A stretch of 62,446 nt of DNA, filler included, from Sluysia triapertura (Eukaryota): NCBI GenBank assembly GCA_046118255.1. It is 4 parts of 4 records of this genome, joined end to end, with 100 filler letters (N's around TTAATTAATTAA, not from the genome) between each part and the next. Parts side by side here need not be neighbours in the genome. Positions count along the whole stretch, not along the records: positions 1 to 17,753 come from JBJNIA010183945.1; 3 more parts are not named here. The stretch is one strand, 5' to 3'. Position numbers and translations under genes: made by a program. This document shows positions 1,553-62,422 of this stretch, piece by piece. How positions within the stretch are numbered: position 1 is the first letter of the stretch; every line of letters starts with the position of its first letter. Under the pieces are notes generated by a model, which was not told where the DNA came from, searched no databases, and was given only the letters and a program-made list of their open reading frames with translations.

Positions 1553-1850
1553 TGTAGAGAAATCATATCAAAATATCAATGCTTAATCATATAAAAACAT
1601 CTCTTACATACACGGAACATTAAACAAACTACTTAACTCATTCAAAAAACAAACCTAATCATTGTATGTAATTGTCATGAATTATAGTTATTGTTATTAT
1701 AAATCCAATCGTATTAATAATCCTTATAATAATTTTTCATAATAACTTTTATAATAACGTCACAACACCATTATTTTAAAATATATAATAATTACATTAT
1801 TGTTATCATTATTATTTCTTTTATTACTACCATCAACCTTTCTTCTTATT
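1553..1850 (+). repeat. LTR-like repeat family A, copy 1
   Basis: Starts TGTAGAGAAATCAT; shares aaacaaactaYtWaactcattcaaaaa, taattRtcatgaa, aataacttttataataa and ttgttatcattattat with 7936-8329; the 5' motifs also occur in the reverse complement of 17854-18031. Confidence 0.75.
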
Positions 1851-2299
1851 CTTTTGTTTGTGTGAATTTGTATATATTTATGTATGTGCGTATCTGAAAA
1901 AATATCTGTCTAAAAAACAAAACCTAATGATCGTGAAATCAAATGTTATTTCATCAGGAAAATGTTTTATATTAAAAAGTGATACTATTTCGAAATTATC
2001 AAGATTAATCATTCCAAACTATCGTATTTCGTTGTACAAATTATCATTGTGTATCTTAATTACAGCATGAACAGTTATGTCAGTTATTGAAGAGAACAAT
2101 CATGGATCGTTGTCACTTTTAGGTGCATTTTTATGGTTTAATTTCTAGTCTTTGTAGAATATACAACACGTGAATTAAGTACAACTTGAAACGTTATGTT
2201 AATATCTTATGTTATGAATTTTGGTACTTTTATCATTTTATTACCTATTGCCTTAATATCTATTCCATCAATTTTATCAATAATTGCTTATTAACCAAT

Positions 2300-2900
2300 T
2301 ATTTTCCAAAACAAATCTTCACAAAATTTCCAAATGTTTTTATTTCTAACAATTCAAATGAGTATTCAAAATTACCACTAAGTTCTGTTGCAAATCAAAA
2401 CAAGTACATTACTTCAAGTTCTAAAGTACAAAGACTAGATCAAACGATTCCACAATGTCAATCTCATCTTAATTTTTATTCTGCAATAGAGACAAATTTA
2501 TAGGCAAACATATGTTCAAAATCATCTTTAATTCGTAAACCAATACCTTACAAAAGTGATCCTTTATTTTCTACTGTTCCAGAATTATTCATTCCTCATT
2601 CTACATCTCCATTTCTTTTTTTTCGGATCATCTGGTATTCACATGAATTCACAATAATTTTTAGACAGTCTTATTAGCTGCTGCTTCATTTCAGATGCGA
2701 ACTAAACCACGTAGATCTATGTTACGTCGATCACTATTTTCCGATAGTCAAATACAAGGTTTTGAAGATGCCTTCAAGAAACATGCATACAAAGCTAAGC
2801 CAGATCGCAAGGAATTAGCAGATCGACTTGCATTAAAAGATGCACAGGTGAAAATATGGTTTCAAAACCATCGAATGAAATAGCGTAACTTTAAAGAGTT
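2300..2900 (+). pseudogene. dbx: Dbx-class homeobox pseudogene fragment
   Basis: KPRRSMLRRSLFSDSQIQGFEDAFKKHAYKAKPDRKELADRLALKDAQVKIWFQNHRMK*RN matches Dbx (KPRRGMLRRAVFSDVQR...SKPDRKKLA..LGLKDSQVKIWFQNRRMKWRN); Trp codon is TAG at 2881-2883; WFQNRR is WFQNHR; upstream coding-like sequence has stops. Confidence 0.85.
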
Positions 2901-3058
2901 GCCCATAAACTAGCGATTGCAGAAGTAGATCTAGAAAGAACTGAATCTCGCTTAGAAAATTGCGAAAGCAAGACCATAGAACTGGGAGAAGAATTGAAAA
3001 TTGTTGTAATAACATGAAGTCATCGGAGATATCCGAGTAAGAAGCAGCTCAACGAGAA
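2898..3058 (+). pseudogene. tpm: Tropomyosin internal fragment (about residues 165-218) fused to the Dbx fragment
   Basis: [52 protein letters not shown] matches spiralian tropomyosin ([52 protein letters not shown]); one frameshift, one stop; not in the ORF track. Confidence 0.88.
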
Positions 3059-3097
3059 AGAAATGAAAATACCGAAGACAAAAAATTACGATTTTAA

Positions 3098-3536
3098 ATG
3101 GAAGATGAATCAAATGAGCCTAAGTCATTATTTAATTGGTCGAAATATTCCGAATTTCAATCTTATTCAATAATTGACAATGATGATGATACTTATGATA
3201 AAACGTCTGATCATTCTTATACTGAGCAGTATGATGACCAAGAAGCTAAAAATAACGAATTAAATTTTGTTGTATTTCAGCCATCATTTATTGATCATCC
3301 GTTAGCAGAATGCACACGATTATCAAGTCAATATCAGACATTTGAACCGTTAAATTTGATAACCTCTGTTACTGATAATGCTGAAGACAATTTATACCGA
3401 ACAGGTTTAACAAATTTTTACATTACGTAGTAAACCTAGAATTAATTTTAAACTATCATTTTAGTCTATTTGGTGCTTTTGCACATTATTATGTTGCGGT
3501 ATATTTATACATAATTATTATTGTATCATTACTGTG
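3098..3536 (+). pseudogene. Further gene fragment(s): acidic segment, then a possible DHHC palmitoyltransferase-like TM segment
   Basis: ORF 3098..3430; candidate GT..AG intron 3405-3464 gives ...SVTDNAEDNLYRT/VYLVLLHIIMLRYIYT, loosely like the ZDHHC2/15/20 TM1-TM2 region. Confidence 0.25.
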
Positions 3537-6725: not shown

Positions 6726-7511
6726 TTATTTCAATCTACTTTTTTTTCTTGTTGGTTGTTTAGAAGCATATTTTTCTTCTAAATTATTGAAAAAACATTC
6801 CATTGATTTTTCCCGGTTTTGTTGTCGTTGAAGTATAAGTTGTGTTAGGTCTGCGTCTTTTTCTAATTTCATATTCTTTTCATAATCCCTTTTCTGTCTT
6901 TGAGCATTTCTCATCCTAGCATTACGTTTTTGTTTCGTTTCATTTGTATACGATTTATAAGGTTCAACTTCATTAGATTCAATCCACTTATCAATAATTG
7001 ATCTATAACGTGGTTCATCTTCAACACTTGAAAGCATAAGACTTTCTATTATTTGATCCATATTTCCTTTATATTTAATATATAAATCTTTGAGATCGTT
7101 TTCCTCTTCCTTACTGCCTTTATAAGAGTTTTCAAACTCTTCAATTTTTTTTATAGTTACTTTAGGATACAACAGTCTAAAATACGTTTCCCAACTTTCA
7201 AACGTGTCATTATCAAATGTATCATCAACATGACCAGTATCGTCATATATTTTTCTTTTTTCTGGATCACTTAATATATTGTGAATTTTAGAAATCAACT
7301 GAAATCTAAACTTAGCATTTTCTTTATCTGAATTTTTGTCAGGATGATGTTTTAAAGATAATTTTTTGTAAGCTTTTTTTACTTAAAAACATAATTAATG
7401 ATGTATTAAGTTACTTTCATCATCAGAACAGTTTTTTGATAATCCAAAAACGTTATATAAATTTTCATCACCAAAGTGAAAATTTAAATCTTTTAATAGA
7501 GACGATTTCAT
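6726..7511 (-). CDS. DNAJC9: DnaJ homolog subfamily C member 9 (exons 7511-7415 and 7381-6726)
   Basis: ATG at 7511; a 33-nt GT-AG intron (7382-7414) restores MKSSLL...NLYNVFGL...IKKAYKKLSLKHHPDK...ILSDPEKRKIYDDTG; DNAJC9 hallmarks YKGSKEEENDLKDLY and FFNNLEEKYA; ends in TAA. Confidence 0.93.
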
Positions 7512-7935
7512 CTATTTTATTTCTTAATTACACTTTGTATTAATAAAATTACAAAATATAAAATATAAAATTAATTATAATGTTTAGAGCTAATAACAAA
7601 ATGAAGAGAATATAACATAAATTATATTGTACTTTATTCAACTAATAAATGATTCAACTTTCTGATTATTTAAACAACATGTGTAAGAAAATTATGAATA
7701 ATCTTAAGTAAGATTAAAACATTGTCAAAACGTGTAAATGAAAATATGGATAATAATTAAAGTTTCCAGCGATTGAATGATTAGAATTGGTTAATTAGAC
7801 TTGCACTAAGAATTTTCATAGTCTGTAGTTGTGCGTGTTTATCGTAATATTTGCTTGATTTATTTACTATTTTTCTTGTCTGTTATTTTAACTTCATTAA
7901 ATTACTTTTTTAAAATTAATATCACTATTACTGTG

Positions 7936-8329
7936 TCTAGGGAATTCATCACACAAAATCCATCACATAAAAACACTTCACATGTACACAGATTATTAAA
8001 CAAACTATTAAACTCATTCAAAAACAAACGTGACCATCACATCTAATTATCATGAACTATCGCTATTAATATTACAATTCAGATCGTATTAAAACATATA
8101 TAATAATTATAGTCATTATTGTCATATAATATGATCATATAGTAATAACTTTTATAATAAATTTCATAACAAATTTCCACAGCAACATTTCAATATTAAT
8201 AAACATAATATCCACATAATTGTTATCATTATTATTATTTCCTTATTCCTATTATTTTTTTCGTTTATTTTTATTATCAATCTATCTTTCTATTTTTTGT
8301 TGTTTTTCTTCAATACTCTTTTTAATACA
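7936..8329 (+). repeat. LTR-like repeat family A, copy 2
   Basis: Starts TCTAGGGAATTCATCA; aligns by eye with 1553-1850 and the reverse complement of 17854-18031. Confidence 0.78.
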
Positions 8330-8364
8330 ATATATCTGATCCTGATATATCTTACTGTGATACT

Positions 8365-8921
8365 CCCGTTGTTGGTAGAAGATTGCATCCACAATATCCA
8401 TTCATTGAAGCAGAGGTAAAATGGGCATGCTTAGAATATGCAGTAAAAGCAGTTGATGTATTTGCATATCGTTTACGTCTTTCATTTCTCAATGTTTATG
8501 CTGCAGAAGAAGCTTTACCTAAAGTGATTGAAATTATGGGACAGCATTTCAATTGGTCACAGGAAAGAAAACAGCGAGAATATGATGAAGCTATGGATTA
8601 TCTGAGAAAACAAATGGGTCTAGGTTTGAAATGTCATATTCAAAGTATTCCAATAAATTTTTCTGAATGTGAAAAGAAAGAATTAATGGCTAAATTTAAA
8701 GCTATAGACAGTGACAATAAGGGATTTTTAACCGTTAAAGATCTGAAGAAATATTTAAAGGAACAAGATGAATCAAGTGAAGAAGTAATCACTGATGCTC
8801 AACTATTGAAAATTCTTGAGGAAGTTGATACAAATAAAAACGGTGAAATTGATGAAAATGAATTTCTTCGGTTTATGAGTGCTCTTAAAACGGGTGCAGT
8901 TGCTGAAAGTGGATTTAAACA
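8365..8921 (+). pseudogene. GPD2: C-terminal fragment of mitochondrial glycerol-3-phosphate dehydrogenase (EF-hand region), 5'-truncated
   Basis: PVVGRRLHPQYPFIEAEVKWACLEYAVKAVDVFAYRLRLSFLNVYAAEEALPKVIEIMG...EVDTNKNGEIDENEFLRFMSALKTG matches GPD2; FAD domain and final residues absent; no splice acceptor upstream, abuts repeat A. Confidence 0.9.
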
Positions 8922-9521
8922 TATGCTATTCAAGTGAACAATTTAGATGGGAGTGAAGCTTTGGTGTCGTTAATACAAAAAACTACTCGCAGTATTAAAA
9001 GAGATTTTAATTCTACTGGTTTAATACATATAGGATTTTCCATTTTTAGAATTGAATTTAATCGAATTACTCGTGTTCGAAAAGTAAATTATCAGAATTT
9101 TCAAGCATCATCGGTATTTATTAATAGTAGATCAGTTTTCTTAAAATTATTTCTTAAAAAAGGTTATTATTTGATTGTACCTTACGCTTACAATCTTGGA
9201 ATACCGAAATCATTTATTCTCCGATTATATTGTCAACAGAAACTGAAATCATTCGAACTATCTTTGTCTCGCCAACATTTGCCACAAAGATTGTCTGGAA
9301 TGTCTTTAAAAAGTACAAAGCTGATCACTAGAGTTACAATTCTTAGAGCTGTCAATTTACCATTCATAGATCCCATTGATGGAGCTAATACTTACGTGTT
9401 ATTACTATGTGAAGGTCAACAAGTAACAACATCAATTTGCAAAAAGTCACTTAACCCTATTTGGGAAGAATCTTTTTTCTTTTATCGCAAATGTCCAAAG
9501 AAAAAATTTATTCGAATTTTT
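8922..9521 (+). pseudogene. CAPN5: Calpain-5/Tra-3-type fragment (domain III plus start of C2 domain)
   Basis: YAIQVNNLDGSEALVSLIQK...HIGFSIFRIEFNR...FINSRSVFLKLFLKKGYYLIVPYAY...FILRLY, then C2 (RVTILRAVNLP...ANTYVLLLCEGQQV...SLNPIWEESFFFYRK); starts mid-motif (NPQY) and ends at donor GTTAGT 9522. Confidence 0.85.
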
Positions 9522-10129
9522 GTTAGTACATTACATTTTTATACAAGCGATTTTCCAAATTTATATATACGATTAGTTTTATTTCTTATAATCATGACAA
9601 ATATAAGAAATGGATTTAAACGTTTGATTTAAATATTTAATTAATAAGTTTTAAAAGGTTATAGAAAATGAGGCTATATATAAATCTTCTTTGGGTTAGG
9701 AAATGCTTAAAAATTTTTACCCCACAGTGCGTTTTGGTTTACATACATGCACCAAACAAATTTTTCTTTGATATTTTATTACATAAACAACTAACAAAAA
9801 CAAGACATGTACTTTATAATTACTTTGAAGGTAATTACTTTAAAGGTAATTACTTTAATTGTATTATCTGACATTTGTCATTAAGATTTTTGCGCTGGTG
9901 TTATTGACGTTTGTTCCAATTTGAAATTAAAATAAGTAGTAGTTACTGATTAAGCTAAGCTCTTTTTTCTCTCATTACATAGTGCATGTATTCATTATGT
10001 ATGACAAAATATAGAAAACGAACATATTTAAGATTAGTGGATTCAAGTATGTATTGAATACTTCATATGTGATTTGATTTTTCGTCATTTTTTATTCTTG
10101 AATATCCCAGCATTTGGGTTTAAAATGTT

Positions 10130-10609
10130 TGTTTTAGAAACAGTGAATGATGATGAACTGATTGATAATCTGACAGTGATGGTAATTCTGAAGATAGTGA
10201 TGAAAATGAGCTGGAAAATAGTGATGTAGAAGATGCAACCCATGCACTAAAATAAGTTGTGATCATTATTTTCAAAGACACTCCAATAATAGTACTAATT
10301 TTGACAATCAAGAAAAAACCTAAGTCAAGGTAATTCTTGTGCAGAAAAAGAAGAATTTTAAATGTTTTTTGTACACATAGCAGAATAATATTAGTGTTTG
10401 AAAACATTGCAAAAGCCATTTCTTTTTTAAATATTTTTAATGGATAGATGCGTAACAAGTGTTACAGAACGTGGAAGATACGTCATTTCTAAAAGACCAG
10501 AGACAACTATTAATTTTTCAAAAATTGAACTTGTGAGATATCTCGGTATTTATGCTATATCATCAGTTGTACACATGCCTAATGTAAGAATGTACTGGAG
10601 ACAATTAAA
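10130..10609 (+). mobile_element. piggyBac transposase N-terminal remnant
   Basis: Acidic N-terminus, then KPFLF*IFLMDR...ELVRYLGIYAISSVVHMPNVRMYWR, a typical PGBD motif. Confidence 0.75.
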
Positions 10610-10613
10610 TTAA

Positions 10614-10683
10614 CCCCTTAACGCGCAGAAACGCATTAACACGGATGTGCACGGTTTTTTTTAAAAAATTGTGCATTAAGGGG
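10614..10683. mobile_element. 70-bp piggyBac-type mini-MITE
   Basis: TTAA|CCCCTTAACGCGCA...TGTGCATTAAGGGG|TTAA: inverted termini and TTAA on both sides. Confidence 0.8.
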
Positions 10684-11689
10684 TTAAATTCTGAGTTCTA
10701 ATTAACATTATCAGGATCCAAAGTTCTTAGACTAGTCGTAATAAATTCAATGATAATTTGTAAATAACGTAATAATAATAATAATATTAATAATAACTAG
10801 AAGAGAAATGAACTTGTGCAACTAATGTGAAGTTTTATATTAGCATGATAAAATTAAAATAATAATGAAAAATTCTAATAGAACAATAAAATTGTATATG
10901 TAAATAATTGTAATTATTGAAAATATGATTGATTAATTTAATTATTTGTGAATAATTTTTAATAATTTGAATAATTTTTGAATAATTTTAGTAATTTGGG
11001 AAATATTTTTAGTTAAAAATTATATAATTTAAAAGTACAAATTAATAGACTAATTAATTAATTAATTAATTTTATCAAAAAGATATAATTTAGCAAATAA
11101 TTTTAATCGTATTTTCTTTTAAAATAAATAAAATAATATCTACCGAAAGCAAATAGCCGGTACATATTAAAGCTTACCGGTAAGCATCAAAAATTTTGCT
11201 TAGTATAAATAGTTTACGGTTTTCGATAGCAATCACAATTTGGTTACACAAGTTTTATACACGATTTCAAGAAGAGTCGTACGTAAGTACACAAATCTGT
11301 TACTACAAATTTGTTTACAACCCGTGGTCAATAACGTTGGATTTGATTTGGGATTATCATTTAATATATAATCTATTTGGCAAATATCTGCACATTTTTG
11401 ATTGATATTCGAGCTTTGCGTTCAGAACTTACAAGTGTGCAGCAAGATTAAGATTTCCTTTTCGTAGCATTGACATATTAAATCCTATAACTAAGTCTTC
11501 CATGAGATATAAATCTTAGATTATAGGCGAACCCACTAAGATATTCATAATTGTTCAGTTAAAGTTTTAATAAAATCTGAACATTGTATACAATAGCTAT
11601 GTTTGTTTTTGAATGATTCAAGTAGTTTATTTAGCGTTGCGTATGTAAGAAATGTTCTTATTTGATGAAGTGTGGAATTTTATACGATT

Positions 11690-11815
11690 TCTCTACACTT
11701 TATGATGGTCCTTATGTGGTACAAGAAGAAACAAAATAAAATCTGAAAATTCTAAAACCTACAATTACCGTACATTGAAATAGATGTAAGAAATTTTATC
11801 CTCCTTCAGAACAAA
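11690..11815 (+). mobile_element. Ty3/gypsy integrase C-terminal (GPY/F) remnant
   Basis: LYDGPYVVQE...TITVH*NRCKKFYP. Confidence 0.5.
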
Positions 11816-13551: not shown

Positions 13552-13709
13552 TATTGGGGTAAAAAGGCCTAAGGTGTCATTTAGTAAAATTGACAATAAT
13601 AAAATAAAACTGTTAGATGGGGTTGATAGCTCAGTGGTAGAGCATTCGAACTGCGCAGAAAAGGTCCCGGGTTCGATCCCCGGTCATTCAATTTTACGAA
13701 GTCTAACAA
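13552..13709 (+). repeat. tRNA-Ala-derived repeat (SINE-like), copy 1; tRNA-like core 13620-13691
   Basis: A box TAGCTCAGTGGTAGAGC and B box GGTTCGATCC; about 65-nt upstream leader shared with 51250-51410; TTTACGAAGTCTAACA tail shared with 33986-34032 and 51250-51410; anticodon arm does not fold normally. Confidence 0.85.
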
Positions 13710-13721
13710 TTTAATTATTTT

Positions 13722-15092
13722 TTATATTAAGACTACAATACATGAAGATTGTAAATATGGCCGGGGTTTATTATTGAAATTGAGATAAAAGTTATAATTA
13801 ATACTTATTATTTTCAAATAATTAAAATTTATTACTTCTGTATTATTAGAAATCATATAGAGAAAATAATCAATAACGTTATTATATTTATACAAAAAAT
13901 TAAAATTGAGATTTGAGTTACACAACAATTTATAAAAATTTAGTTTAGGCTTCCAAAGCCCATACATTTCACTATAAGAAACAATCTTGAAAAACAGATG
14001 AATTGAATTGCAAGTATTTATGTAATCAGCTGTGAAATGAGGAGTTAATGACTGACGTTCTAAACTGGCCATAGGTTTCTGACTTTCTAGTAAAGCTTCA
14101 AGAACGCGATCATGATCTGGGAGATAATTCTGAACTTGTATCAAAAACTCGTACAATACTAAATCAAATTTTAAACTTACAAAAACTTTTAAAATTTCAA
14201 CACTGCGTATCATAATATTGTGAAACAATTCTAATTGAATAACACTAATATAACTAGTTTTAAAATATTGTTTATTATTTTCGCGAAAATAAAAATGAAT
14301 ATAAAAATAAACTTTATAAAATTTAACAAAATGGGGGTACAAATGTACCGATACATTATTAAAATCGAAATAATAAGTCAAGACATATTTAGTTAATATA
14401 AAACCTTTTCTTAGATCGCCTAGAACATCTTTATCTGATACATAATTCAAAGCATTACTGTGATCTAAGGTAAGTCCACATTTATCTGACACATGATTTG
14501 AAACATGACAATGATCTAAAGTAAGACCACATTTATCTAATACATAATTTAAAACATAATAGTGATCTAAAGTAAGACCACATTTAACTAATACTTCATT
14601 TAAAACATAATAGTGATCTAAAGTAAGACCACATTTAACTAATACATCTTTCCTCTCCACATTAGAGCATTCACATTTCAAAATACTAATAGTTGGACAT
14701 TTTAAAAGATCAGCATTTAACATTCTATACAGGTTATGAACTGAGTTGGTCAAATCTCCTTCGTCGTTTGCATCTATGATCATTTCTTCCTTCATCTCTA
14801 TGGCGTCTGATTCCTTTTCAAATTGCTTCATGAACATTTGTAACAGTGGCAAGTTCGTAGGTCTAGTCATACGTTGCATGGTTTTCATAACTTCTTTCAT
14901 ATCCTGGGTCATCATATTTGTCGATCGCAATATTTCCATCTGCATGGATTTCGTGATATCATTACTTGGACATTTTGTTTCTTGCGTCTTGATTTTCTGT
15001 TGCATTAATGCAGACAACTCGAACAACTGTTCAGCATTTTCACTTTCCATTGCTGCTTTCATTCCAAATACTTGATGCTTTAAACTAAACAT
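13722..15092 (-). CDS. Intronless 456-aa CHMP2/Vps2 (ESCRT-III, Snf7 family)-derived protein with 17-aa tandem repeats and a novel C-terminal half
   Basis: SMQMEILRSTNMMTQDMKEVMKTMQRMTRPTNLPLLQMFMKQFEKESDAIEMKEEMIIDAND aligns with CHMP2A SLKIQTLKSNNSMAQAMKGVTKAMGTMNRQLKLPQIQKIMMEFERQAEIMDMKEEMMNDAID; repeat VLDKCGLTLD resembles CHMP2 VLDELGLSL. Confidence 0.75.
   Translation of the reverse strand: MFSLKHQVFGMKAAMESENAEQLFELSALMQQKIKTQETKCPSNDITKSMQMEILRSTNMMTQDMKEVMKTMQRMTRPTNLPLLQMFMKQFEKESDAIEMKEEMIIDANDEGDLTNSVHNLYRMLNADLLKCPTISILKCECSNVERKDVLVKCGLTLDHYYVLNEVLVKCGLTLDHYYVLNYVLDKCGLTLDHCHVSNHVSDKCGLTLDHSNALNYVSDKDVLGDLRKGFILTKYVLTYYFDFNNVSVHLYPHFVKFYKVYFYIHFYFRENNKQYFKTSYISVIQLELFHNIMIRSVEILKVFVSLKFDLVLYEFLIQVQNYLPDHDRVLEALLESQKPMASLERQSLTPHFTADYINTCNSIHLFFKIVSYSEMYGLWKPKLNFYKLLCNSNLNFNFLYKYNNVIDYFLYMISNNTEVINFNYLKIISINYNFYLNFNNKPRPYLQSSCIVVLI
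14429..14649 (-). repeat. Coding 51-bp tandem repeat, about 4.3 copies
   Basis: agtgatctaaagtaagaccacattta recurs at 14561 and 14612 (51-nt period); translates as xVLxKCGLTLDHxxVLN. Confidence 0.92.
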
Positions 15093-15299
15093 TTTTTGAA
15101 CTGTAATATTTTTGAAATGTATATTTTAAAAAATTCGAAAAATTTCTTTGTAACCGAATTGACCTTTGGACTATATTGCTAAAAAATAAATTCGTAAAAT
15201 TAAAACAAAAATACATAAAATAAACAATAATAAAAATAATAATAATCATAATAATAAAAATTAATAATCATAATAATAAAAATTAATAATAAATAATCA

Positions 15300-16474
15300 T
15301 TGTATAAAAATATTTCAACTGGTAATTTAGTTAAATTGTCATAACATTGGTTGATCCATGATGGTTTTATAAATGAAACATTGTCATATTTAGAATTAAT
15401 TGGTAAATTATTAACGATAACATGTGTTGGTTTATTTGTATCAATTTTTCCACCTAAATTAAGAATTTTCTCAGTTAATTTAGTTATTAAATCAATTGAA
15501 CAATTTTCAAATGAAAATAAGCAATCTTCAAATATATTAGTTTCATCAACAAATTCTGATTCGCCATTTAATTCTAATACCGCATCAATTTCATTTAAAA
15601 TTTCTGTATTATTAAGAACTTTGTGTGTAGTCTTTTTATTAAGGTTGTATAGATTAATATCTTGACAGTAATTATATTTGAAACTTTCTTCTAAGTCTAA
15701 ACTTACAGTTGGTATATTCCATAAATTAGCATGATGTCACTTACTTCCAGTTCGATCATGAGATACTAAAATCGTTGTTGAATCTTTTAACAAATCCGCT
15801 GAAAATTCACCGCCATTTTCTATTATTTTCTTTCTATAACGTTCTTTTATCGTTGAACTAAAACCACTTAAACAAATCTTCAATTTATAAAATAAAGGCA
15901 CTTTATGTTTAGTTGTTAATTCCGATGACAGAGCATCGAAATGAATTACAGTTGAAGATATATCCAAAATTTCATCTATCCAACTTCGTTTTAAACAAAC
16001 GACGCCTTTTTGATTAGCAATTATGAATTTATCTGTCAATATGTTTTCTACGATTAAAGCATTTACTTCTTCGGTTAACCCAGTACAAACAATGCCACCC
16101 ATCATTTCAATTATTTCAAAAATACTTCCCTTTAGTTCTTTTGTAAACCCAACAGTACAAATGCGGATATCTTCTAATACACTATTAAGTCTGGGATTTT
16201 TAATGATTGGCAAATGGAGCTTTTTCATTAAACAATTTAATACAACCGCTGGATGTAAAATATGCATTCCTAGCTTCTTTAAATGCAAAAAAGCAGGACC
16301 ATGAAATTTTGACATAACAAAAAAAATATCTTTCTTAAATTCTTGGTATGACACAGCTTCAATTTCATTTATTATTTTAATAGAAACACCATCTAAAGAC
16401 TTAATTTCTTGCACAACCTTTTTCAATAAAAGTGATTTATCATCTTTAAAAAACAACATATTCCATTTACCCAT
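15300..16474 (-). pseudogene. TOPBP1: TOPBP1-like N-terminal multi-BRCT copy: intronless, internal TGA, 3'-truncated
   Basis: FHGPAFLHLKKLGMHILHPAVVLNCL, IEMMGGIV...SWI and PLFYKLKICLSGF...IENGGEFS match TOPBP1 BRCT0-2; frame continues past TGA 15737-15739 (GSK*HHANLWNIPTV...YCQDINLY vs GQKYECAKRWNVHCV...FCQDESIY) into another BRCT (NLGGKI...PTHVIV...PSWINQCY), then runs into TTA-rich sequence. Confidence 0.82.
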
Positions 16475-17064
16475 TGAAAGAAAATAAAATTAATGTCTCT
16501 TCAAAATATACATATAAAATAAAACAGAACTCATTTGATTTATGTAAATGATAAAATAATTTTTAAATACCTTATTAAACAAACAAATTCGCTTAATTCT
16601 TTTTTTAAATAGTGTAAAATATTAAACATAATTTATTTTGAAAATAAAACCAAATTTTAAACCAAAATTTTAGCTTAAATAAAATATCATATTTTTGTAA
16701 GTAACTATTGAAATATTAAAACAAATGTTTTAAAAAAAAGAGTAGTAATATTCAATTACAAATGAGATACATTTTTAATTTGACTTTCAGAATGATTTTG
16801 GTAGATTAAATGTATTATATTGTTTGTTATCGGGTACTAAAAGGAAATGAAAAATTTCTAAAGAAATTTTTAAAGATACGACTTAAACGATCAAGCATAT
16901 ATCTTAAGAAAAGCTTACCATAATAAATATGATTAATTATTATTACTTATTGTTATTTACCATAATAAATATGCTATTTATCTGTCTAGGTATGACAATT
17001 GCGTGAAAATTATTTGTTTTTAGGATGCCTGTCTTTTATTAGACATTTTCTTTTCTTGTTATAC

Positions 17065-17753: not shown

Positions 17754-17853
17754 NNNNNNNNNNNNNNNNNNNNNNNNNNNNNNNNNNNNNNNNNNNNTTA
17801 ATTAATTAANNNNNNNNNNNNNNNNNNNNNNNNNNNNNNNNNNNNNNNNNNNN
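17754..17853. other. Artificial contig linker
   Basis: 44 N + TTAATTAATTAA (stops in all six frames) + 44 N. Confidence 0.97.
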
Positions 17854-18031
17854 TCATGATAATTAGATGGGATGGTCGTGTTTACTTTTGAATGAGTTTA
17901 GTGGTTCGTTGAATAGTTTGTGTATGTGTGGGGCGTTTTTAAGCGATGGATTGTGATGAACTGTATGTGATGAGTTATCACGAATATTATATGATGACTT
18001 ATGGTGAATACTATATGACGAGTTCCCTACA
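17854..18031 (-). repeat. LTR-like repeat family A, copy 3 (5' part, cut by the contig end)
   Basis: Reverse complement TGTAGGGAACTCGTCA...aaactcattcaaaagtaaacacgaccatcccatctaattatcatga; its ORF tail LNSFKSKHDHPI mirrors LNSFKNKRDHHI of ORF 7831..8046. Confidence 0.8.
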
Positions 18032-32980: not shown

Positions 32981-33985
32981 AAAAATAATAAAATTATTTA
33001 AAAAACTAGTAAAACAATTTTTGTATTATCCAAAGTTATATTAAGGTTTCGACAATTTAAATTTGCCTCTCTTGTTTTTCCTTATGTCACAAATCGTCCT
33101 TCTTGATACGATTTTCTTTAATTTATATGAAAAATACTCTTGAACACACGGCTATCTGTTATGTTTCGATTTTCTTCACAGTATTTGATTTTTTCAAATT
33201 TTTTTTATTTTGCTCATCTAAAAGGAAATATTTAATACAAAAATAGCAAAAATTATAAACAAAAATAATTAATAAAATATATTATTAAACCAAATTACAC
33301 TTATATTAATTTTTGCAAAAAGTAGTTACTGTATGACAATAGAATTTATTCGTTAATTACAATAAAAATATTAGAACAAATCAAAACAATTTACAAATAA
33401 ATTTTTACATTTCAACAACAAATAAGTACAAATCAAACCAACTTTAAGTAATTATAAATAGAAAAAATTACGAAGTTTATTACGTGTTAATATTAATACT
33501 AATGCACAATTGCAATTTATGTGGTTTAATAGTATAATTTAATATATTGGTGTTCAATTTAATAATAATATCAAATAATATTACTTTATAAGATTAAAAT
33601 TATTAATCTTTACTCAGTAAAATGACCACATTAAAACGTCTTTTATAGTATTAAATGAAAATTTACGTTAATTTTAAATACAGTTTAAAATGTGATACTT
33701 GAAAAATTACAAACTAACGATTAATACAAAATTTCGATGTTCAAAATTGTGTTACTTTTTCCTAAAGATGAATTGTCTAATAATTTTTCCTTTCCAAAAA
33801 CGTAAACGTTAAAATAATGTAGTTTAAAGATTAATCTTTATAATTAACTCTGTAGTTATTAATATGATAAAATGATTAAATATATCGCGACATTTATGTA
33901 AAATTTTTAACGATTGTTTTTCTTTATATGTATATAAACTTAAAAGTATGTTTGATTGTTATTATTATTATTATTGTTATTATTA

Positions 33986-34032
33986 CTGTTAGACTTCGTA
34001 AAATGGACTGACCGGGGATCGAACCCGGGACC
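33986..34032 (-). repeat. tRNA-Ala-derived repeat, copy 2 (3' half, cut by the contig end)
   Basis: Reverse complement GGTCCCGGGTTCGATCCCCGGTCAGTCCATTTTACGAAGTCTAACAG, then an (AAT)n tail. Confidence 0.85.
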
Positions 34033-34132: not shown

Positions 34133-34328
34133 AAATCAGATTTCTATGTTTTGTACCTAATAAAGTTTGACAGACCGTACCATGTAGTTGTCAAAGTTGT
34201 TATTGTCGGCTTGATTCTCAAAGAGGTTTGGATGATTTGTGTGAGAGAATGTTTGGTTGTGAGATTGTGAACTGATTGGATGATCAGAGAGTATAAAATA
34301 AAGATTGAGAAAGTAGTGATTTTCTAAA
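34133..34328 (-). repeat. LTR-like repeat family C, 5' part
   Basis: Aligns with 40350-40500 (acctaatRaagtttgacaga, tcaaagaggttt, ggatgatSagaRagtataaaataaa); minus strand begins TTTAGAAAATCA, like the TGTAGAGAAATCA start of family A. Confidence 0.75.
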
Positions 34329-39357: not shown

Positions 39358-40510
39358 TGTCAGGAAATGAGGGAGAAACCTATGGAGTTATAAAATAAAG
39401 AGAGAATTGATGGATTAAACATTACAAACATTGTTGAAATAAAAATCATGAAAAGAAAACATTTCAAATGATGTTAGCAGCTAAAGAATACCGTGGAGTT
39501 CCAAAGACCTATATAAGGGTTTGAGACCCTGTGGAAGTTTGAGATGGACTCGAAAAACCTTTAGAAGCATTAAGTACCTTTGAACTTTAGAACTTTTAGA
39601 TCATTTAAGACCTTATTAACCTTGAAGTATTCTTCGAGTAATGTTATAAAGTGCATAAAATTTTTAAAATATTTGAGAAATAAAATCATCGTTATTCGTA
39701 TTAAGAATAAATCTAGTATAGTAATAATTAACATGAAGAAGTAGAAAAAGTAATCAGAGAGGTGAAGGTGAAAACATCTAGAGCCTCCTGGGTGTCTTAT
39801 AATTTACTTGAAAGCTTTGAAACTTTAATAAAACCTTTAAACATAAAATAAAATTAAGTCTACAAATAAATTAATTAATTAAAATTTTAAGAAAAAGTAC
39901 GTTTTTGTGAATCACTTTTGAATGCGGAATTTGAAACTGCGTATTTGTTTTGAAAAGACCTTTAGATGAAGGTATGGGTTGACCGAGTTCATGCAAGGAA
40001 AGCCTCAATAAGTTAAAATTTAATTAATTTTTAATTTTGAAATGATGAATTTTTAATGCTTAGACTGATGCAAATAAGATGAATGGAATATGAGATGATT
40101 GCTATGAAAGTGGAGAATCTAGAATTGAGTTCGAAATGTTTGTAAAATGGTTCGTTTGAGAATAAGAACCTTAAAACATTTTTAATTAGAAAATTGGGTG
40201 TGAAAAATGGAAAATTAATTAAATAACAGTAAGTGAAATTAAATTCATTATTTTTATGTATTTTAATGTATATTCTTGATTGTTATTTTAATGCAAGAAG
40301 TAATATAAGTAAAAGTAGATTGAGTAGAATAAAAGAAAATGATGGTTGATAAGAAATCATATTTTTGTGTTTTTACCTAATGAAGTTTGACAGAAGGTAG
40401 CATGTAATTGTCAAAGAGGTTTTGATGATTTGTATGAGAAAGTTTTTGATTGTGTAACTTAGGATTGACTGGATGATGAGAAAGTATAAAATAAAAAACT
40501 TAAAAACTTT
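39358..40510 (-). repeat. LTR-like repeat family C, near-complete solo LTR candidate (about 1.15 kb)
   Basis: Contains both the 17065-17546 and 34133-34328 segments; strong strand skew; TATA-like CCTTATATAG; ends ...CCTGACA. Confidence 0.72.
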
Positions 40511-43813: not shown

Positions 43814-44925
43814 CTAAATTACAAATATGTTTTAGCAACAGACATTTCAAATATCTTATTTTAATAGATATTCTTTACATCTAGTTTCACACATCCACCT
43901 ATTGACTACAAATGGATACAAATAAAATTTCTTTTCAGATAATTTATTTTTACAACTATTTATTTAGTTCCAGCTTTTTTAAAATTCCGAAGAATTTGAT
44001 TTAAAATATTTACATTGTTCCTTGGCTGCAAAAAAAGAAATATTTCTCGCTTGATCCGCAGATATCGAATAAATTGATCTACAAAGTTAAGCAACCGTGG
44101 CAATTGTAGATTCATGACAGCTTGGAAATGAGCGATACTGATGGAAATAAATTCTAATTATATTCTTCTCTAAATGCGAGTTTCATATTCATAATCAAAC
44201 AATATGCCAATGTATGCAAGAAGAAACTTCAAAAATTCAAAAATATTAAAATATATAATAGATTCACAAAAACTTTAGAAATACGAAAAAAAATTACTGA
44301 GAACAAGTCGTTTAAGGAATGTTATTGAACCTAGTGGAAAAGTTATTAATGTCGGTTTAATTCTCAAAAGAAGTTCTAATTATTTGTTTTAACGAATGTT
44401 TGATTGTAAAATTCAAAAATGATTGGATAGTGAGAAAATATAGCGGACACAGAATGCTGCTTATTCATGGTCCGTGTTTTCATTCATTGATTCGATTGTT
44501 GCATAGTTAACATTATAATAAAATTAGTTGTTAATTATCTAATGTCAATTTTAGGTATTCTGAACATTTCATTTTTAAGATTAGTTGAATTTGCTCATTT
44601 TAGTTGTGTAATTGTAATATTTGTGTTACACTGAATATAATTAAGTTCGAATTTTATTCTGATTTAAAAGTTTTGAATTTAAAGTTAATATAAACTAAAT
44701 TTAATTAGATTAAAGACGCAATATTATACTGTAATAAAAGACCCACTTATTTTCCGATCCCTATCTCGTATGAAAACATGTGCATCCTTAAACTTTCCTT
44801 AAATTTATAACTTCTAAAGCTCGGCAGAATTAAATTTAGAAACGAATGAGTTATCGTTGTTTTAATTAATTAAATATTGTTGTGCATTACAAAATTCTTA
44901 AAAATTGAAATCAAATGAAACTAAC

Positions 44926-50290: not shown

Positions 50291-51249
50291 TAAAACAAAT
50301 AAACACAAATTAAAATTAAAACCCGACATACTAATTATTGAAATTATTAAGTTTTAAACTGATCAAGACAGTAAGATTGAGTTTTAATATTTAACAATTT
50401 TTAAAGACGCAACAATTTCAATAAATAAATAGTTATTACAAATTTTATAATTATAATACAATATAAAGAAAGTTCTTATAAAATTAATAAAAAGTCAAAA
50501 TTAATTACCAAATAGAGGTATATAACAAGTTTATGACAATCAAACAATAATAATTGTAAACGTTAATACAAGTTAACTTTTCTTACTATCCTAAATTTTT
50601 TCCGAAAACTAAATCGATTGAAACCCATTATAACAACGAAGTGTAAGTGTTTTTTCTTTTCTGCGAATTCTAACCGTACACTTACAAAATATATAAGGGT
50701 CGTTTCGCCTAATAAGCACATTTTACGTTTATTTCTAAAGGATGGCTTATTAGGATTTTTACTAACTAAACTAGTTACTCAAACAAGTTTTATTACGAAC
50801 AAAATTACTAAAAATATTATACCATAAAATTATTATTAAATTCGATTACAGTATATCTTTGTAAAAAATATGTGACGAAAAAAACATAATATAAATAAAA
50901 TTTATTTAATATTAACACACCATCTTAATATTCAATGATTTTAATGAGATTTTAAGATAACCTTTAGAACCACCGTAAAATTATTTATTTTAAGTATGAT
51001 TTTAAGTTTTAAGTGAAGTATATAAAAACGTACAGGAATAAACTTACGCTTAGAATGGAACTAAAACTGTTGATTATAGAAATTGTCCTTTCCAAGTTGA
51101 AAATACCGAGCAAAATTAATAACTAAATTACAAAATTTGCTCCAAATGTAGTTATTCTACAATTTTTTTTGTTGCCGTTGCGACATATTAAAAAGTTCAC
51201 TATATATTTTTGACAATTATTTTGATAAAACAATTTTAAATTTTTATTT

Positions 51250-51410
51250 ACTGTTAGACTTCGTAAATTGGACTGACTGGGGATCGAACCCGGGACCTCT
51301 CGCTGCGCAGTTCAGTGCTCTACTACTGAGCTATCAGCCCCATCTAAACATTTTATTTTATTTTAGTCAATTTTACCAAATGGCGCTTTAGGTCTTTTAC
51401 CACAATATTA
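51250..51410 (-). repeat. tRNA-Ala-derived repeat, copy 3; tRNA-like core 51269-51340
   Basis: GGGCTGA/TCAGTCC acceptor stem with G3:U70; D arm intact, T arm with one mismatch; anticodon stem mispaired; same leader and tail as copy 1. Confidence 0.88.
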
Positions 51411-55900: not shown

Positions 55901-57461
55901 TTTTTTAAAATTAATAGAGAACTTTTATTTACTTTTTTGTTTTTTAACAAATTGTTATTTTTGGTTGATAAATTTTCGTATCACGATTGGCTGTCGAATC
56001 AAAAATGATTTTGAGAGTTTAAACACGACTACTGATTTGGTTGGACAGCCAATAATCTGTTATTTTATTTCATTAACTTTGAGTTGAATCAAACTGTGTC
56101 ATCAACACTGACACAGAATTGTAATTGTGAAGCAAAGTGTTATTGCTGATGATGGTAGTAACTCAGTTGATTTTGAGCTGCTTTAATTTAAATTAATTTA
56201 ATTATACAAAATGGTGATAATAANNNNNNNNNNNNNNNNNNNNNNNNNNNNNNNNNNNNNNNNNNNNNNNNNNNNNNNNNNNNNNNNNNNNNNNNNNNNN
56301 NNNNNNNNNNNNNNNNNNNNNNNNNNNNNNNNNNNNNNNNNNNNNNNNNNNNNNNNNNNNNNNNNNNNNNNNNNNNNNNNNNNNNNNNNNNNNNNNNNNN
56401 NNNNNNNNNNNNNNNNNNNNNNNNNNNNNNNNNNNNNNNNCTTATGTTGTACTAGGTAACTTTGCATGATGGATTCTAATTTTTTGACTGGGATAATGTT
56501 TTTTGGCTGAAATGTTATTAAGATATAAATAATTTTGAACTAAACATTTAGAATAATGTAAACGTTAAAGTGAGTGATGATGATGTTTGGCTATTAAGAT
56601 TAAATAATACAAGATGTATGTTTATGGTGTTTACATTTATTTTGAACGTATTTCTTGATTGATTACGAATGTGAATGTGATTGAATTGTTTAAGATGAAG
56701 GATAAAATACTATAGATAACTTTTTAATGTAATTTGATGATTTAGAATGTTATTGTGGTTTATATGTTGACACTGGATATAATTAACTTTAGCGGATGAA
56801 TTGTTTTGATGGATATAGAAGAGATATATATGATATAAAATGTTACGGGGTGTGGTTTTATGTACATTGTTTTGGTTTAGTTTGATATTTTTTATATTGA
56901 TTTTTGAATATAAATTGTAATTTTTGAGGGTGTATGTGATTTTGTAATATTGTGAAAAGGGATTTTTATAAAATTTGAAAGGTTTACCACCACAATATTT
57001 TCATTGAGATTCTTTAAAAACTTCACCTTAAGTAACTTCAAATTCCGACAAATTTGATTGGCTAATCTTCAGAGCCTTTCACAATAGCCAGTTTATAAAA
57101 AATAATTTGCACATTATATTTATGGAGTATGTTATATTTCATCTATTCTAAATTATTTCAGATGCGTACTCTTTTCATTTGCAGTCATGAATATTGTCGA
57201 AATTGTTTACGCAGCTCATTAATGGCGGATATTGAAACTAAAAGCCTATCTGATTTGGGATGCCCCATATGTTCTCAAACAGCAGGTAGTAACTATATAA
57301 TGTACTCGGCAATTAGGCAGTTTTTACAAACAGAATTAAATCAAATGAAAGATGAAAAAGATAGCGTTGAATTGAAAAGAATTCTAGAAATATACGATTC
57401 GAAACTGCTTGATGGATGTCTAAAATCTTCAGATAATTATCACAACTGTCCTTACGATGAT
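52925..57461 (+). CDS. RNF31: RBR E3 ubiquitin ligase, RNF31/HOIP-like, partial; exons 52925-53161 and 57162-57461
   Basis: Phase-0 splice gives RING1 CDICCDNFPSSM/MRTLFICSHEYCRNCL...IETKSLSDLGCPIC, then IYDSKLLDGCLKSSDNYHNC (IBR start), paralleling HOIP; orthology within the RBR family is less certain. Confidence 0.7.
53790..54075 (+). mobile_element. Tc1-like transposase remnant
   Basis: GLRARRPRRKPKL...RSAWAMQHQHLTEDDWSQVCFSDESCF. Confidence 0.85.
54272..54483 (+). mobile_element. Tc1/mariner transposase C-terminal remnant
   Basis: LVKSIDTIPGRLEKLVVNGGVYIEF*. Confidence 0.5.
54900..55853 (-). pseudogene. Degenerate ORF downstream of repeat family B
   Basis: Chain of broken ORFs (55248..55496, 54940..55239) starting near ATG 55852; unidentified. 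Confidence 0.3.
55855..56994 (-). repeat. LTR-like repeat family B, copy 1 (contains the N-gap)
   Basis: Minus strand starts TGTGGTGGTAAACC and is A/C-rich; aaaccacaataacattctaaatcatcaaattacattaaaaagtt matches about 60938-60980; inverted CCAAT boxes; aaatttatcaac motif before an ATG. Confidence 0.65.
56224..56440. other. Ordinary scaffold gap (217 N, no linker)
   Basis: Direct reading. Confidence 0.95.
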
Positions 57462-60536: not shown

Positions 60537-62125
60537 TGTGCTGACCAACCCAGCAATTTGAAATTTTATCCCAATAAATACAACAAAATTACTAGCCAAA
60601 AATTTCATAATTCTTAATACTTCTAAACATAAACTTACAATACACTAAATTCACATTCAATACTGAAAATAATGGAAGATTAACTTTACAAATTAATTCG
60701 TAACAGTACAAACTTAATTCAATACACTTCACATAAAATCATGTACCATAACATTTCACCCATTTTTCTATCAAAGCCTTTTCCCACATTTTTTTTCTTC
60801 AGCGGCACTAGAACTATTCTCATTTTAATACGTTTTGAGTTATAAACTTATTACACCAAAATTTCATCGACATCTAAAACCATCACCTCACATTAAATTT
60901 TACTTAAAACATTTTAACCTTTAATTCATAACATTAGAACCACAATTACATTTAAAACCATCAATCTACAATTTAAAGTTTATTCAAAACAGCTCATTTC
61001 ACAAGCCCTCACCATTCAAACCACAATTTACATCTCAAATTATCAAATTTACATCTTAAAATCAATCCAAGATATTGTAAGTTTACAACCTTAACCCTCA
61101 ACATTTAATCTCTAACATCACTGAAACCATTGAACTAACACTTTGAAATCATTTTAGATGTTGTAATCAAAATAACATTCTCTCAACACTTCGTTCAAAC
61201 ACTTTCTTACCAGCCCTTTCTATAATTTACATCTTTCTTATTACTCAGTAAACTCTTTTCCAAATGAAATAAGAACTAAAACTAATATTGCAAAATTGAT
61301 CTAGAAAAATAGACCAACCGTTGCGTTGCTCTAAAGTTAAAAGAGACCTATAATATAAGAAATTTACAATGTAACAAAGATAAAGGAATATCATGATGAT
61401 TCTTTCTTTTAAAGAGATGTCAAATATGTCTAAATACAGCAATTTTTATTAAGTTAATTTTATGTTGAGAAATAATTTTTATTAGAAGTATTTTAATTTC
61501 AATCATTTTTTAAAAAATTTTAAGATGTTCAGAAAATAGTTAAAATTAAAAGAAAGATTATGTTATTGCCTATAAAAGAGTTTATGTTTTTAATTTAATA
61601 TTTTAATATTTCAATTCTGCATTTTGTAATTTTTGTATTATTAATCTCATCCATTTATTATTATTATTTTTCATCACCGTTATTTCTCATTACCAATATT
61701 GTTGATAATACTGTTTCGACCTGGTGCTGATTTTAATTCATTAACTGTCACCGATAGACAGAGTTATTAGCATTAACCTGACATTTCATGTTAACTGTCT
61801 ACCGATGACAGTTACTAAGTCGATTATTTCAGTTGAATGAGGATAGTTAATCATGCTTTACTGTCGTTTTATTGTGTACTAACACTTCTACTGGCTGACC
61901 AATTAAAATTTTTAGTACTTCTCATCAATGCCTGTTTTGATTGGTCGGCCAGTTACAGTGCACAGTTGCAGGTGCAGGTGCAGTTACAATTAGTAAGAAC
62001 GTAATTAACGTTAAAATTTAAAATATTTATGTAATACTGTTAATTTATTATATCTTAAAAAGTGATCACGTTGTCATAAATTTATCAACGCTTTCATAAA
62101 TTGTTCAAAATGAAATAATTAGTAG
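60537..62125 (+). repeat. LTR-like repeat family B, copy 2, with promoter-like region
   Basis: Starts TGTGCTGACCAACCC; nearly G-free A/C-rich strand; homology to 55855-56994; inverted CCAAT pair at 61891-61952. Confidence 0.62.
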
Positions 62126-62422
62126 ATGTCTGGTGATACTGACACAGAGTATTATGAAACAGGAGATAATTATTATTTTGACGATGATTATAAAACCGAT
62201 GAACCTAAAACAGATACGGAGTACTTACTTCATGAAGAACTACAAACTTCAAATGTGGAAATAATGTTAAATAAAGTTATACATGAATTGGCAAATAAAA
62301 TTGTTTCTTTTATTATCGCTAAAATGTTATTTATATCATATAATTCATCATTTGATAAAATTTGTCTAGATCAGGCCTTCTTAAACTATGGGTCGCGAGA
62401 GATTTTAATGTCAAATATTTAA
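62126..62422 (+). CDS. Acidic ORF start downstream of family B (possible element ORF)
   Basis: ATG directly after the shared aaatttatcaac...aattgtt motif; MSGDTDTEYYETGD...; no known domain. Confidence 0.3.
   Translation: MSGDTDTEYYETGDNYYFDDDYKTDEPKTDTEYLLHEELQTSNVEIMLNKVIHELANKIVSFIIAKMLFISYNSSFDKICLDQAFLNYGSREILMSNI

Follow-up and report, generated by a model that had tools for sequence, protein, structure and literature searches.

SVA elements depend on L1, finish in a poly(A) tract and gain exons at the 5' side. The non-canonical SVA subfamilies, in the sections of PMC6139936 that deal with them, formed when host exons were spliced to the element and then retrotransposed. In Drosophila, LTR-mediated retrocopies can combine two genes and re-amplify, according to parts of the account in PMC5131818. 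Helitrons are defined, in an extract of PMC3288121, by a 5' TC, a 3' hairpin followed by CTRR, and insertion between A and T. A literature search by title and start of abstract, with most subscription papers and supplements outside it, found no paper on gene-capturing repeats of flatworms. Nor was a paper found on a chimera of GPD2 and calpain, most subscription papers again lying outside the search, and there was no calpain-5 exon map among the listings.

The locus lies in a window of 62,446 nucleotides from Sluysia triapertura, the window being the whole stretch of DNA that was analysed. It is AT-rich eukaryotic DNA, mostly 20-35% GC, from an animal genome, and is interrupted by scaffold gaps, the next to the right of the chimera being at 17754. 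Host-gene introns in the window are short (33 and 36 bases), and neighbouring host genes contain long exons, of 218 and 384 open codons. DNAJC9 (6726-7509, - strand) looks intact, with one 33-base intron and its 5' part at single-copy depth; approximately 430 bases upstream of it a repeat head is inserted, head to head. A decayed piggyBac-type relic occupies 10038-10690 (PF13843 match at 10431-10610, E 5.6e-4, below cutoff), and in this zone, near 10614-10684, there is a mini-element with CCC...GGG ends flanked by TTAA and a bin depth of 14,122. An open frame of 467 codons at 13722-15125 (-) has a weak match to Snf7, which is fused to tandem repeats of 51 bases. The TopBP1-like BRCT piece at 15203-16489 (-) is free of introns, has an in-frame TGA at 15734-15736 and is probably another cargo or a pseudogene. 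A tRNA-cored repeat has three copies in the window (13552-13708, 33973-34032 and 51240-51407), and a second, strand-biased repeat family with a G-poor minus strand was seen at 34133-34302, 40354-40495 and 44339-44442. A promoter scan gave 5 against 6.3 expected, using a bacterial model that is uninformative for this eukaryotic DNA.

The key to the locus is the repeat head, which is missing from the earlier note. It lies at 7936..8245 (+), is about 310 bases long, G-poor (6% G) and of very high copy, and runs from a sharp 5' end to a (TAT)n tract. Three further copies were located by blastn and the start motif: at 1553..1810 (+), before a homeobox mosaic; at 11588..11697 (-), inverted; and at 17854..18031 (-), where the head is cut by a scaffold gap. 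The start motif is common to all four copies, with unrelated DNA before it, and was derived from those same four copies, so that its chance figure is inflated. Two of the heads align over approximately 300 bases up to the (TAT)n tract and then diverge. The public contigs of run X1 give this left end independently: a single-copy contig ends at 7965, which places the first of the shared 31-mers at 7936. The head matches nothing in Rfam, lacks pol III A and B boxes and has no unusual fold (z -0.07). In X1 a contig connects 8247 with 7938 over a stretch of 34 letters, so that heads may also occur in tandem. At 1553-3430 (+) the same head precedes a mosaic whose homeodomain ends in a stop, and in which one scrap is, we presume, tropomyosin-like.

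The head is followed by a T-rich linker of lower copy (8246..8364, +) which contains no pol III boxes and ends in an ATG-less frame reading ISDPDISYCDT (8332-8364). As the earlier note stated, this peptide is in frame with the GPD2 piece; there is no ATG before it, and the first in-frame Met is at 8536. The note's further claim, of a capture into the start of an element ORF, was based on a likeness to a frame starting at 62126 and was not supported, given that there is no ATG and that 62126 follows a twin-hairpin head unlinked to the present one by blastn. The peptide scored 22 against the start at 62126, the highest of 314 ATG starts, with the next three at 21, 21 and 21, and 0.4% of 20,000 random stop-free 13-mers reached a score of at least 22. 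No convincing Pfam match was obtained for the frame at 62126. Twin-hairpin cassette heads of another family were spotted by eye at 61700-62419 (+) and 55960-56220 (-).

The first cargo is the 3' part of GPD2, the mitochondrial glycerol-3-phosphate dehydrogenase, at 8365..8921 (+). It comprises the end of DAO_C and both EF-hands, without an intron. The frame is open from 8326 to 8937 and gives a DAO_C match (profile 56-126, E 7.5e-21) followed by an EF-hand pair, the arrangement by which it was assigned to the FAD-type GPD2. All five GPD2 queries matched by tblastn over 8365-8916/8928, at 37-52% identity; no closer relative was found, the best identity being 52%. The piece covers approximately residues 517-700 of 720, so that about 515 N-terminal and about 18 C-terminal residues are missing. 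Homology searches found neither the FAD-binding DAO domain nor the full GPD2 C-terminus in the window, and no other part of GPD2 elsewhere in it. The stop codon of the frame, at 8935-37, falls beyond the joint. Of 50 conserved columns 46 are kept, on a par with working homologues. Three of four near homologues, and a trematode model, show intron-like breaks within this stretch which the window does not have. The 5' end, 8365, coincides with no intron position seen in the homologues compared.

The second cargo, at 8922..9521 (+), is domain III and most of the C2 domain of a calpain of the calpain-5/Tra-3 type, again without an intron and out of frame with GPD2. Its frame is open over 8919-9632, overlapping the GPD2 frame at 8919-8937, and matches the Calpain_III (41-137) and C2 (4-71) profiles. 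All five calpain queries matched by tblastn (8922/8952-9497/9554). Domain III followed by C2 places it with calpain-5/6, whose layout and names are shared by its full-length relatives. The piece begins at the Tyr after NPQ, and its last residue directly precedes the V/I-W of C2. A protein from a monogenean shares the starting point Tyr-Ala-Ile in its alignment, with 31% identity over 196 residues. Neither the Peptidase_C2 protease core nor the end of C2 matched in six frames of the window, in a search whose control passed. Longer calpain relatives were absent from 1107 candidates, and a search of a representative set did find some. The calpain frame keeps 21 of 24 conserved columns, five columns past the cut being set aside. 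The two cargoes meet at 8921/8922, where AAACA is followed directly by TATGCT. The earlier note's description of this stretch was accurate: its estimates of about 185 and 200 stop-free codons are exactly 185 (8365-8919) and 200 (8922-9521), the out-of-frame joint that it put near 8920 is the one given here, and the GTTAGT at which it ended the calpain part begins at 9522.

Sequencing depth, taken from public contigs, falls from the head to the calpain piece. Run X1, a possible source of the window, accounts for 75% of the words sampled; its single-copy flank contigs have depths of 16.7 and 15.4 (about 16). Summed over short contigs, which overcounts and does not give a copy number, the X1 depth was 140,000-268,000 over the head (242,760 at 8211, 89,239 at 8239), then 11,195 at 8264, 5,841 at 8299 and 2,485 at 8343 in the linker, and 260-1300 in GPD2 (1,118 at 8530, 261 at 8716). 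Single contigs in calpain had depths of 94.6 (0 of 141 letters different) and 74.3 (1 of 171), and past 9522 the depth returns to 15.4. The successive levels were taken to mean thousands of copies, then tens, then about five or six. Both the GPD2 and the calpain pieces are amplified. This disposes of the possibility, raised in the earlier note against its own reading, that these are the only GPD2 and calpain-5 copies in the genome, and the note's suggestion of a recent capture, here behind a mobile repeat, is supported. None of the eight X1 contig pieces listed spans the joint. In X2 and X4 there are contigs that match GPD2 as far as 8921 and differ from the window beyond it, from which it follows that GPD2 exists without the calpain piece; apparently GPD2 was captured first and calpain second. 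X2, X3 and X4 repeat the X1 pattern at 0.35%, 0.04% and 0.16% of its head depth, with no long flank contig among the pieces listed, and their signal is probably carry-over or traces rather than independent support.

The explanation which we favour, and to which we give an even chance, is that calpain was added second by the splicing of a read-through RNA driven from the head, likely with reverse transcription, and that the result is a young non-coding passenger. The head would first have taken up the GPD2 piece and spread. One head-GPD2 unit would then have landed, sense-oriented, upstream of the calpain domain-III exon, and splicing of its transcript would have used a cryptic phase-2 donor that follows AAACA in GPD2 together with the phase-0 acceptor of calpain; a junction between these phases would break the frame. 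Finally, a reverse transcriptase would have copied the spliced product about five or six times.

The argument for splicing comes from the position of the calpain ends in homologues. Of the 142 sequences that passed a loose filter, unrelated C2 proteins included, only calpain-type rows were counted. In the cluster P0108, P0193 and P0194 a 30-residue insert stands exactly at the Tyr after NPQ, with Val first and Lys or Gln last, and in P0050 and P0158, too, foreign sequence is attached at that Tyr. From the Val start and the Lys/Gln end these inserts would appear to be introns, and the acceptor side of the captured exon thus matches a putative intron position. At the other end six homologues read into intron-like sequence where the calpain piece stops: P0054, P0105 and P0155 re-enter cleanly, and P0087, P0112 and P0156 run off. 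Intron-like breaks inside the calpain stretch of P0158 and P0198 are missing in the window. A random break would land on an exon start with p of approximately 0.003-0.02, assuming 6-12 exons. As both calpain ends fall at predicted intron positions, the GPD2-calpain joint is likely a splice joint which was re-copied via RNA. Several points weigh on the other side. The cryptic GT after AAACA and the parent acceptor are predicted sites; the putative intron positions were deduced from protein predictions, unannotated, in other animals, and the clean 5' insert occurs in only one cluster among the 62 sequences in which NPQ was located. The GPD2 5' end at 8365 matches no intron position shown. Given the long exons of neighbouring host genes, missing introns alone do not prove an RNA step. 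A poly(A) tract, a target-site duplication, an LTR pair, a primer site and a reverse transcriptase were all looked for at the locus and not found, and among 73 frames scanned for a mobilising enzyme only DNA-transposase scraps and host domains matched. Moreover, a spliced copy would be expected to continue into the last calpain exon, and what is seen here is a donor.

That donor, GTTAGT at 9522..9527 (+), stands where homologues show an intron-like break. GTNAGT occurs at 0.06% of window positions, and a chance origin for the motif at a homologous intron site seems unlikely. After it, single-copy non-coding DNA (9522..10030, +) could be flanking DNA, an intron that was captured, or an intron of the parent gene itself. 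The contig covering 9492-10638 has a depth of 15.4, no differences and no fork, and its first 31-mer ends at the donor G, 9522, exactly where the other copies depart. The earlier note took the retained donor as a sign of a DNA or unspliced pre-mRNA source. This is not established, as the calpain piece starts at a putative exon start and the contig at the donor G. A copy with a captured parent intron should share it with the parent and fork later, against which no later fork is seen up to 10638.

These features make it a substantial possibility, though one that falls short of probable, that the capture is real and the right end is a mis-join, or an ectopic recombinant, that leaves via the parent calpain exon and intron. 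The first 31-mer of the contig ends on the donor G, so that the donor is not shared with any second copy whose exon end is the same. The contig paths listed lack the letters of the window at 9207 and also its length at 9472-9479, a length that agrees with homologues; a lone allele would be missing in this way. Over 141 letters (8967-9107) the copies are identical, long enough for crossing over, and the window is a gapped scaffold in which the DNA up to the next gap is mostly mobile or broken sequence. Against this, the last calpain exon is absent from the 8.2 kb before the gap and from the whole window, where the best score was 1.9 bits; in the control, a left-out flatworm tail gave 28 bits, or 12 bits from its first 20 residues alone. 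A short shared intron start would also be masked by a single private change within the final 30 bases of the exon, and the bins after 9522 have depths of 24-38, above 15, although chance matches in AT-rich DNA give a like excess elsewhere. A mis-join is compatible with the splice explanation: the donor, and possibly the clean calpain frame, may then be the parent's own.

Capture at the DNA level, the reading of the earlier note, we consider unlikely. A rolling-circle or TIR-type element would have overrun its end and taken up genomic GPD2, then calpain with its donor and the beginning of its intron, and the parents would have long exons in the captured stretches, as neighbouring genes indeed do. 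The donor lies at a homologous intron site, the head copy at 7936 starts with TC, one contig shows tandem heads (8247 to 7938), and stepwise capture is known for Helitrons from passages of PMC3288121 and PMC4224331. Set against these are the start TGTAG, not TC, in three of the four heads, and the lack of an insertion site between A and T. The sole candidate for a hairpin with CTRR, at 9868, lies in a tandem repeat of AT-rich sequence and has a C after it. No matched inverted arm was found by blastn; the inverted third head gave no match to the 7936 copy at E 1e-4. DNA capture also leaves unexplained both a joint on the first base of an exon, without acceptor-side intron, and the single-copy status of the intron DNA. 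The hexamer TTACTG, present both at 7928 and at 9943, was put down to chance.

Somewhat more doubtful is template switching during LTR-type reverse transcription, by which head, GPD2 mRNA and calpain RNA would have been joined at short shared words. Both pieces are cut at both ends without poly(A), as are Drosophila LTR retrocopies in the parts of PMC5131818 that describe them, and heads start with TG in three of four copies. Yet from 9522 to the gap at 17754 blastn detected no further head in direct orientation, though a mis-join would hide one, and searches found neither a TGG primer site (8230-8364) nor a purine tract around 9521, nor a target-site duplication. A selected new gene is very improbable, whether as an EF-hand protein of 133 residues that starts with the ATG at 8536 or as a fusion of GPD2 and calpain by frameshift: both frames are open and conserved residues are kept (46/50 and 21/24), but the joint is out of frame, a stop is present in 40% of the GPD2 depth and calpain siblings carry frameshifts.

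The open frames can be accounted for by age. In neutral simulations (1,500 runs each, substitutions only) both frames stayed open in 67%, 47% and 20% of runs when divergence was 0.5%, 1% and 2%, respectively; at higher divergence the GPD2 frame was open in 14% at 5% and 5% at 8%. Among the copies G8530T, which changes a Glu codon to a stop, accounts for 448 of a depth of 1118 (40%) in five contigs. Calpain siblings show +1 at 9472 (58/93), -6 at 9474 (34/93) and -1 at 9501 (22/337), and a skip of 43 bases at 9260-9302. With stop and indel variants among the copies and no in-frame ATG, selection is not needed, and the open frames probably reflect youth, with which the retention of conserved columns is also in keeping; any hint that selection keeps them open is not supported, in view of the same variants. 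One contig at single-copy depth differs at 13 of 194 letters within GPD2, and if it is the parent, a GPD2 frame open by chance becomes less likely. A -1 frameshift at TTTAAAC before the joint was rejected, since a canonical -1 slip would need the heptamer in another frame, and a stop at 8916 closes the -1 frame. The chimera is thus probably a young passenger without a coding role and not a new working gene.

As a probable dead-end passenger, the chimera has its value as a young and readable case of a gene-capturing repeat. It also urges caution, for open frames and a "retained donor" in short-read repeat assemblies can stem from youth and mis-joins. Returning to the splice explanation, the exon-precise joint predicts a GT after AAACA in the parent GPD2 and an AG before TATGCT in the parent calpain, a prediction that separates splicing from both template switching and DNA capture. 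Only tentatively would we generalise to a repeat of no assigned class which grows at its 3' side by serial exon trapping: its transcript would run through the cargo, be spliced to whichever host exon came next after the landing site, and be re-copied, the staircase of depths recording the order of capture. If true, this would mirror the exon trapping of SVA and supply a general mechanism behind the many gene mosaics of this genome.

The defining ends of SVA, LTR retrocopy, Helitron or Pack-TIR elements could not be recognised in the chimera, which is filed under none of them. With Helitrons it shares nested families to which one gene fragment is added per step, as passages of PMC3288121 and PMC4224331 relate, but TC begins only one of the four heads, and there is no credible hairpin-CTRR end and no insertion between A and T. 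Animal Pack-TIRs, in the portion of PMC8277862 that treats them, are likewise repeats carrying multicopy host fragments; unlike Pack-TIRs and Pack-MULEs, the cargo here is flanked by no matched inverted ends and no target-site duplication. A small-RNA-derived head with pol III boxes, as in SINEs, was not found by the Rfam and A/B box searches. As for a SINE- or SVA-like tail, the high-copy body ends in (TAT)n and neither poly(A) nor a duplication follows the cargo. The likeness to LTR retrocopies, as sections of Tan et al. 2016 (PMC5131818) present them, lies in two parents, cuts at both ends, the absence of poly(A) and L1 marks, and re-amplification, and a start in TG (three of four head copies) recalls LTR elements. 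In contrast to them there is no LTR pair, primer site or purine tract, and the joint is at an exon start rather than at shown microhomology. Like SVA in the relevant sections of PMC6139936, a non-coding, high-copy element would here have gained a host exon by a splice joint, re-amplified and gained more, as we infer for calpain; unlike SVA, its cargo is 3' of the head, and poly(A), duplication and partner enzyme were not found. By analogy, its mode of action would most resemble those of the splice-made SVA subfamilies and the two-gene LTR retrocopies.
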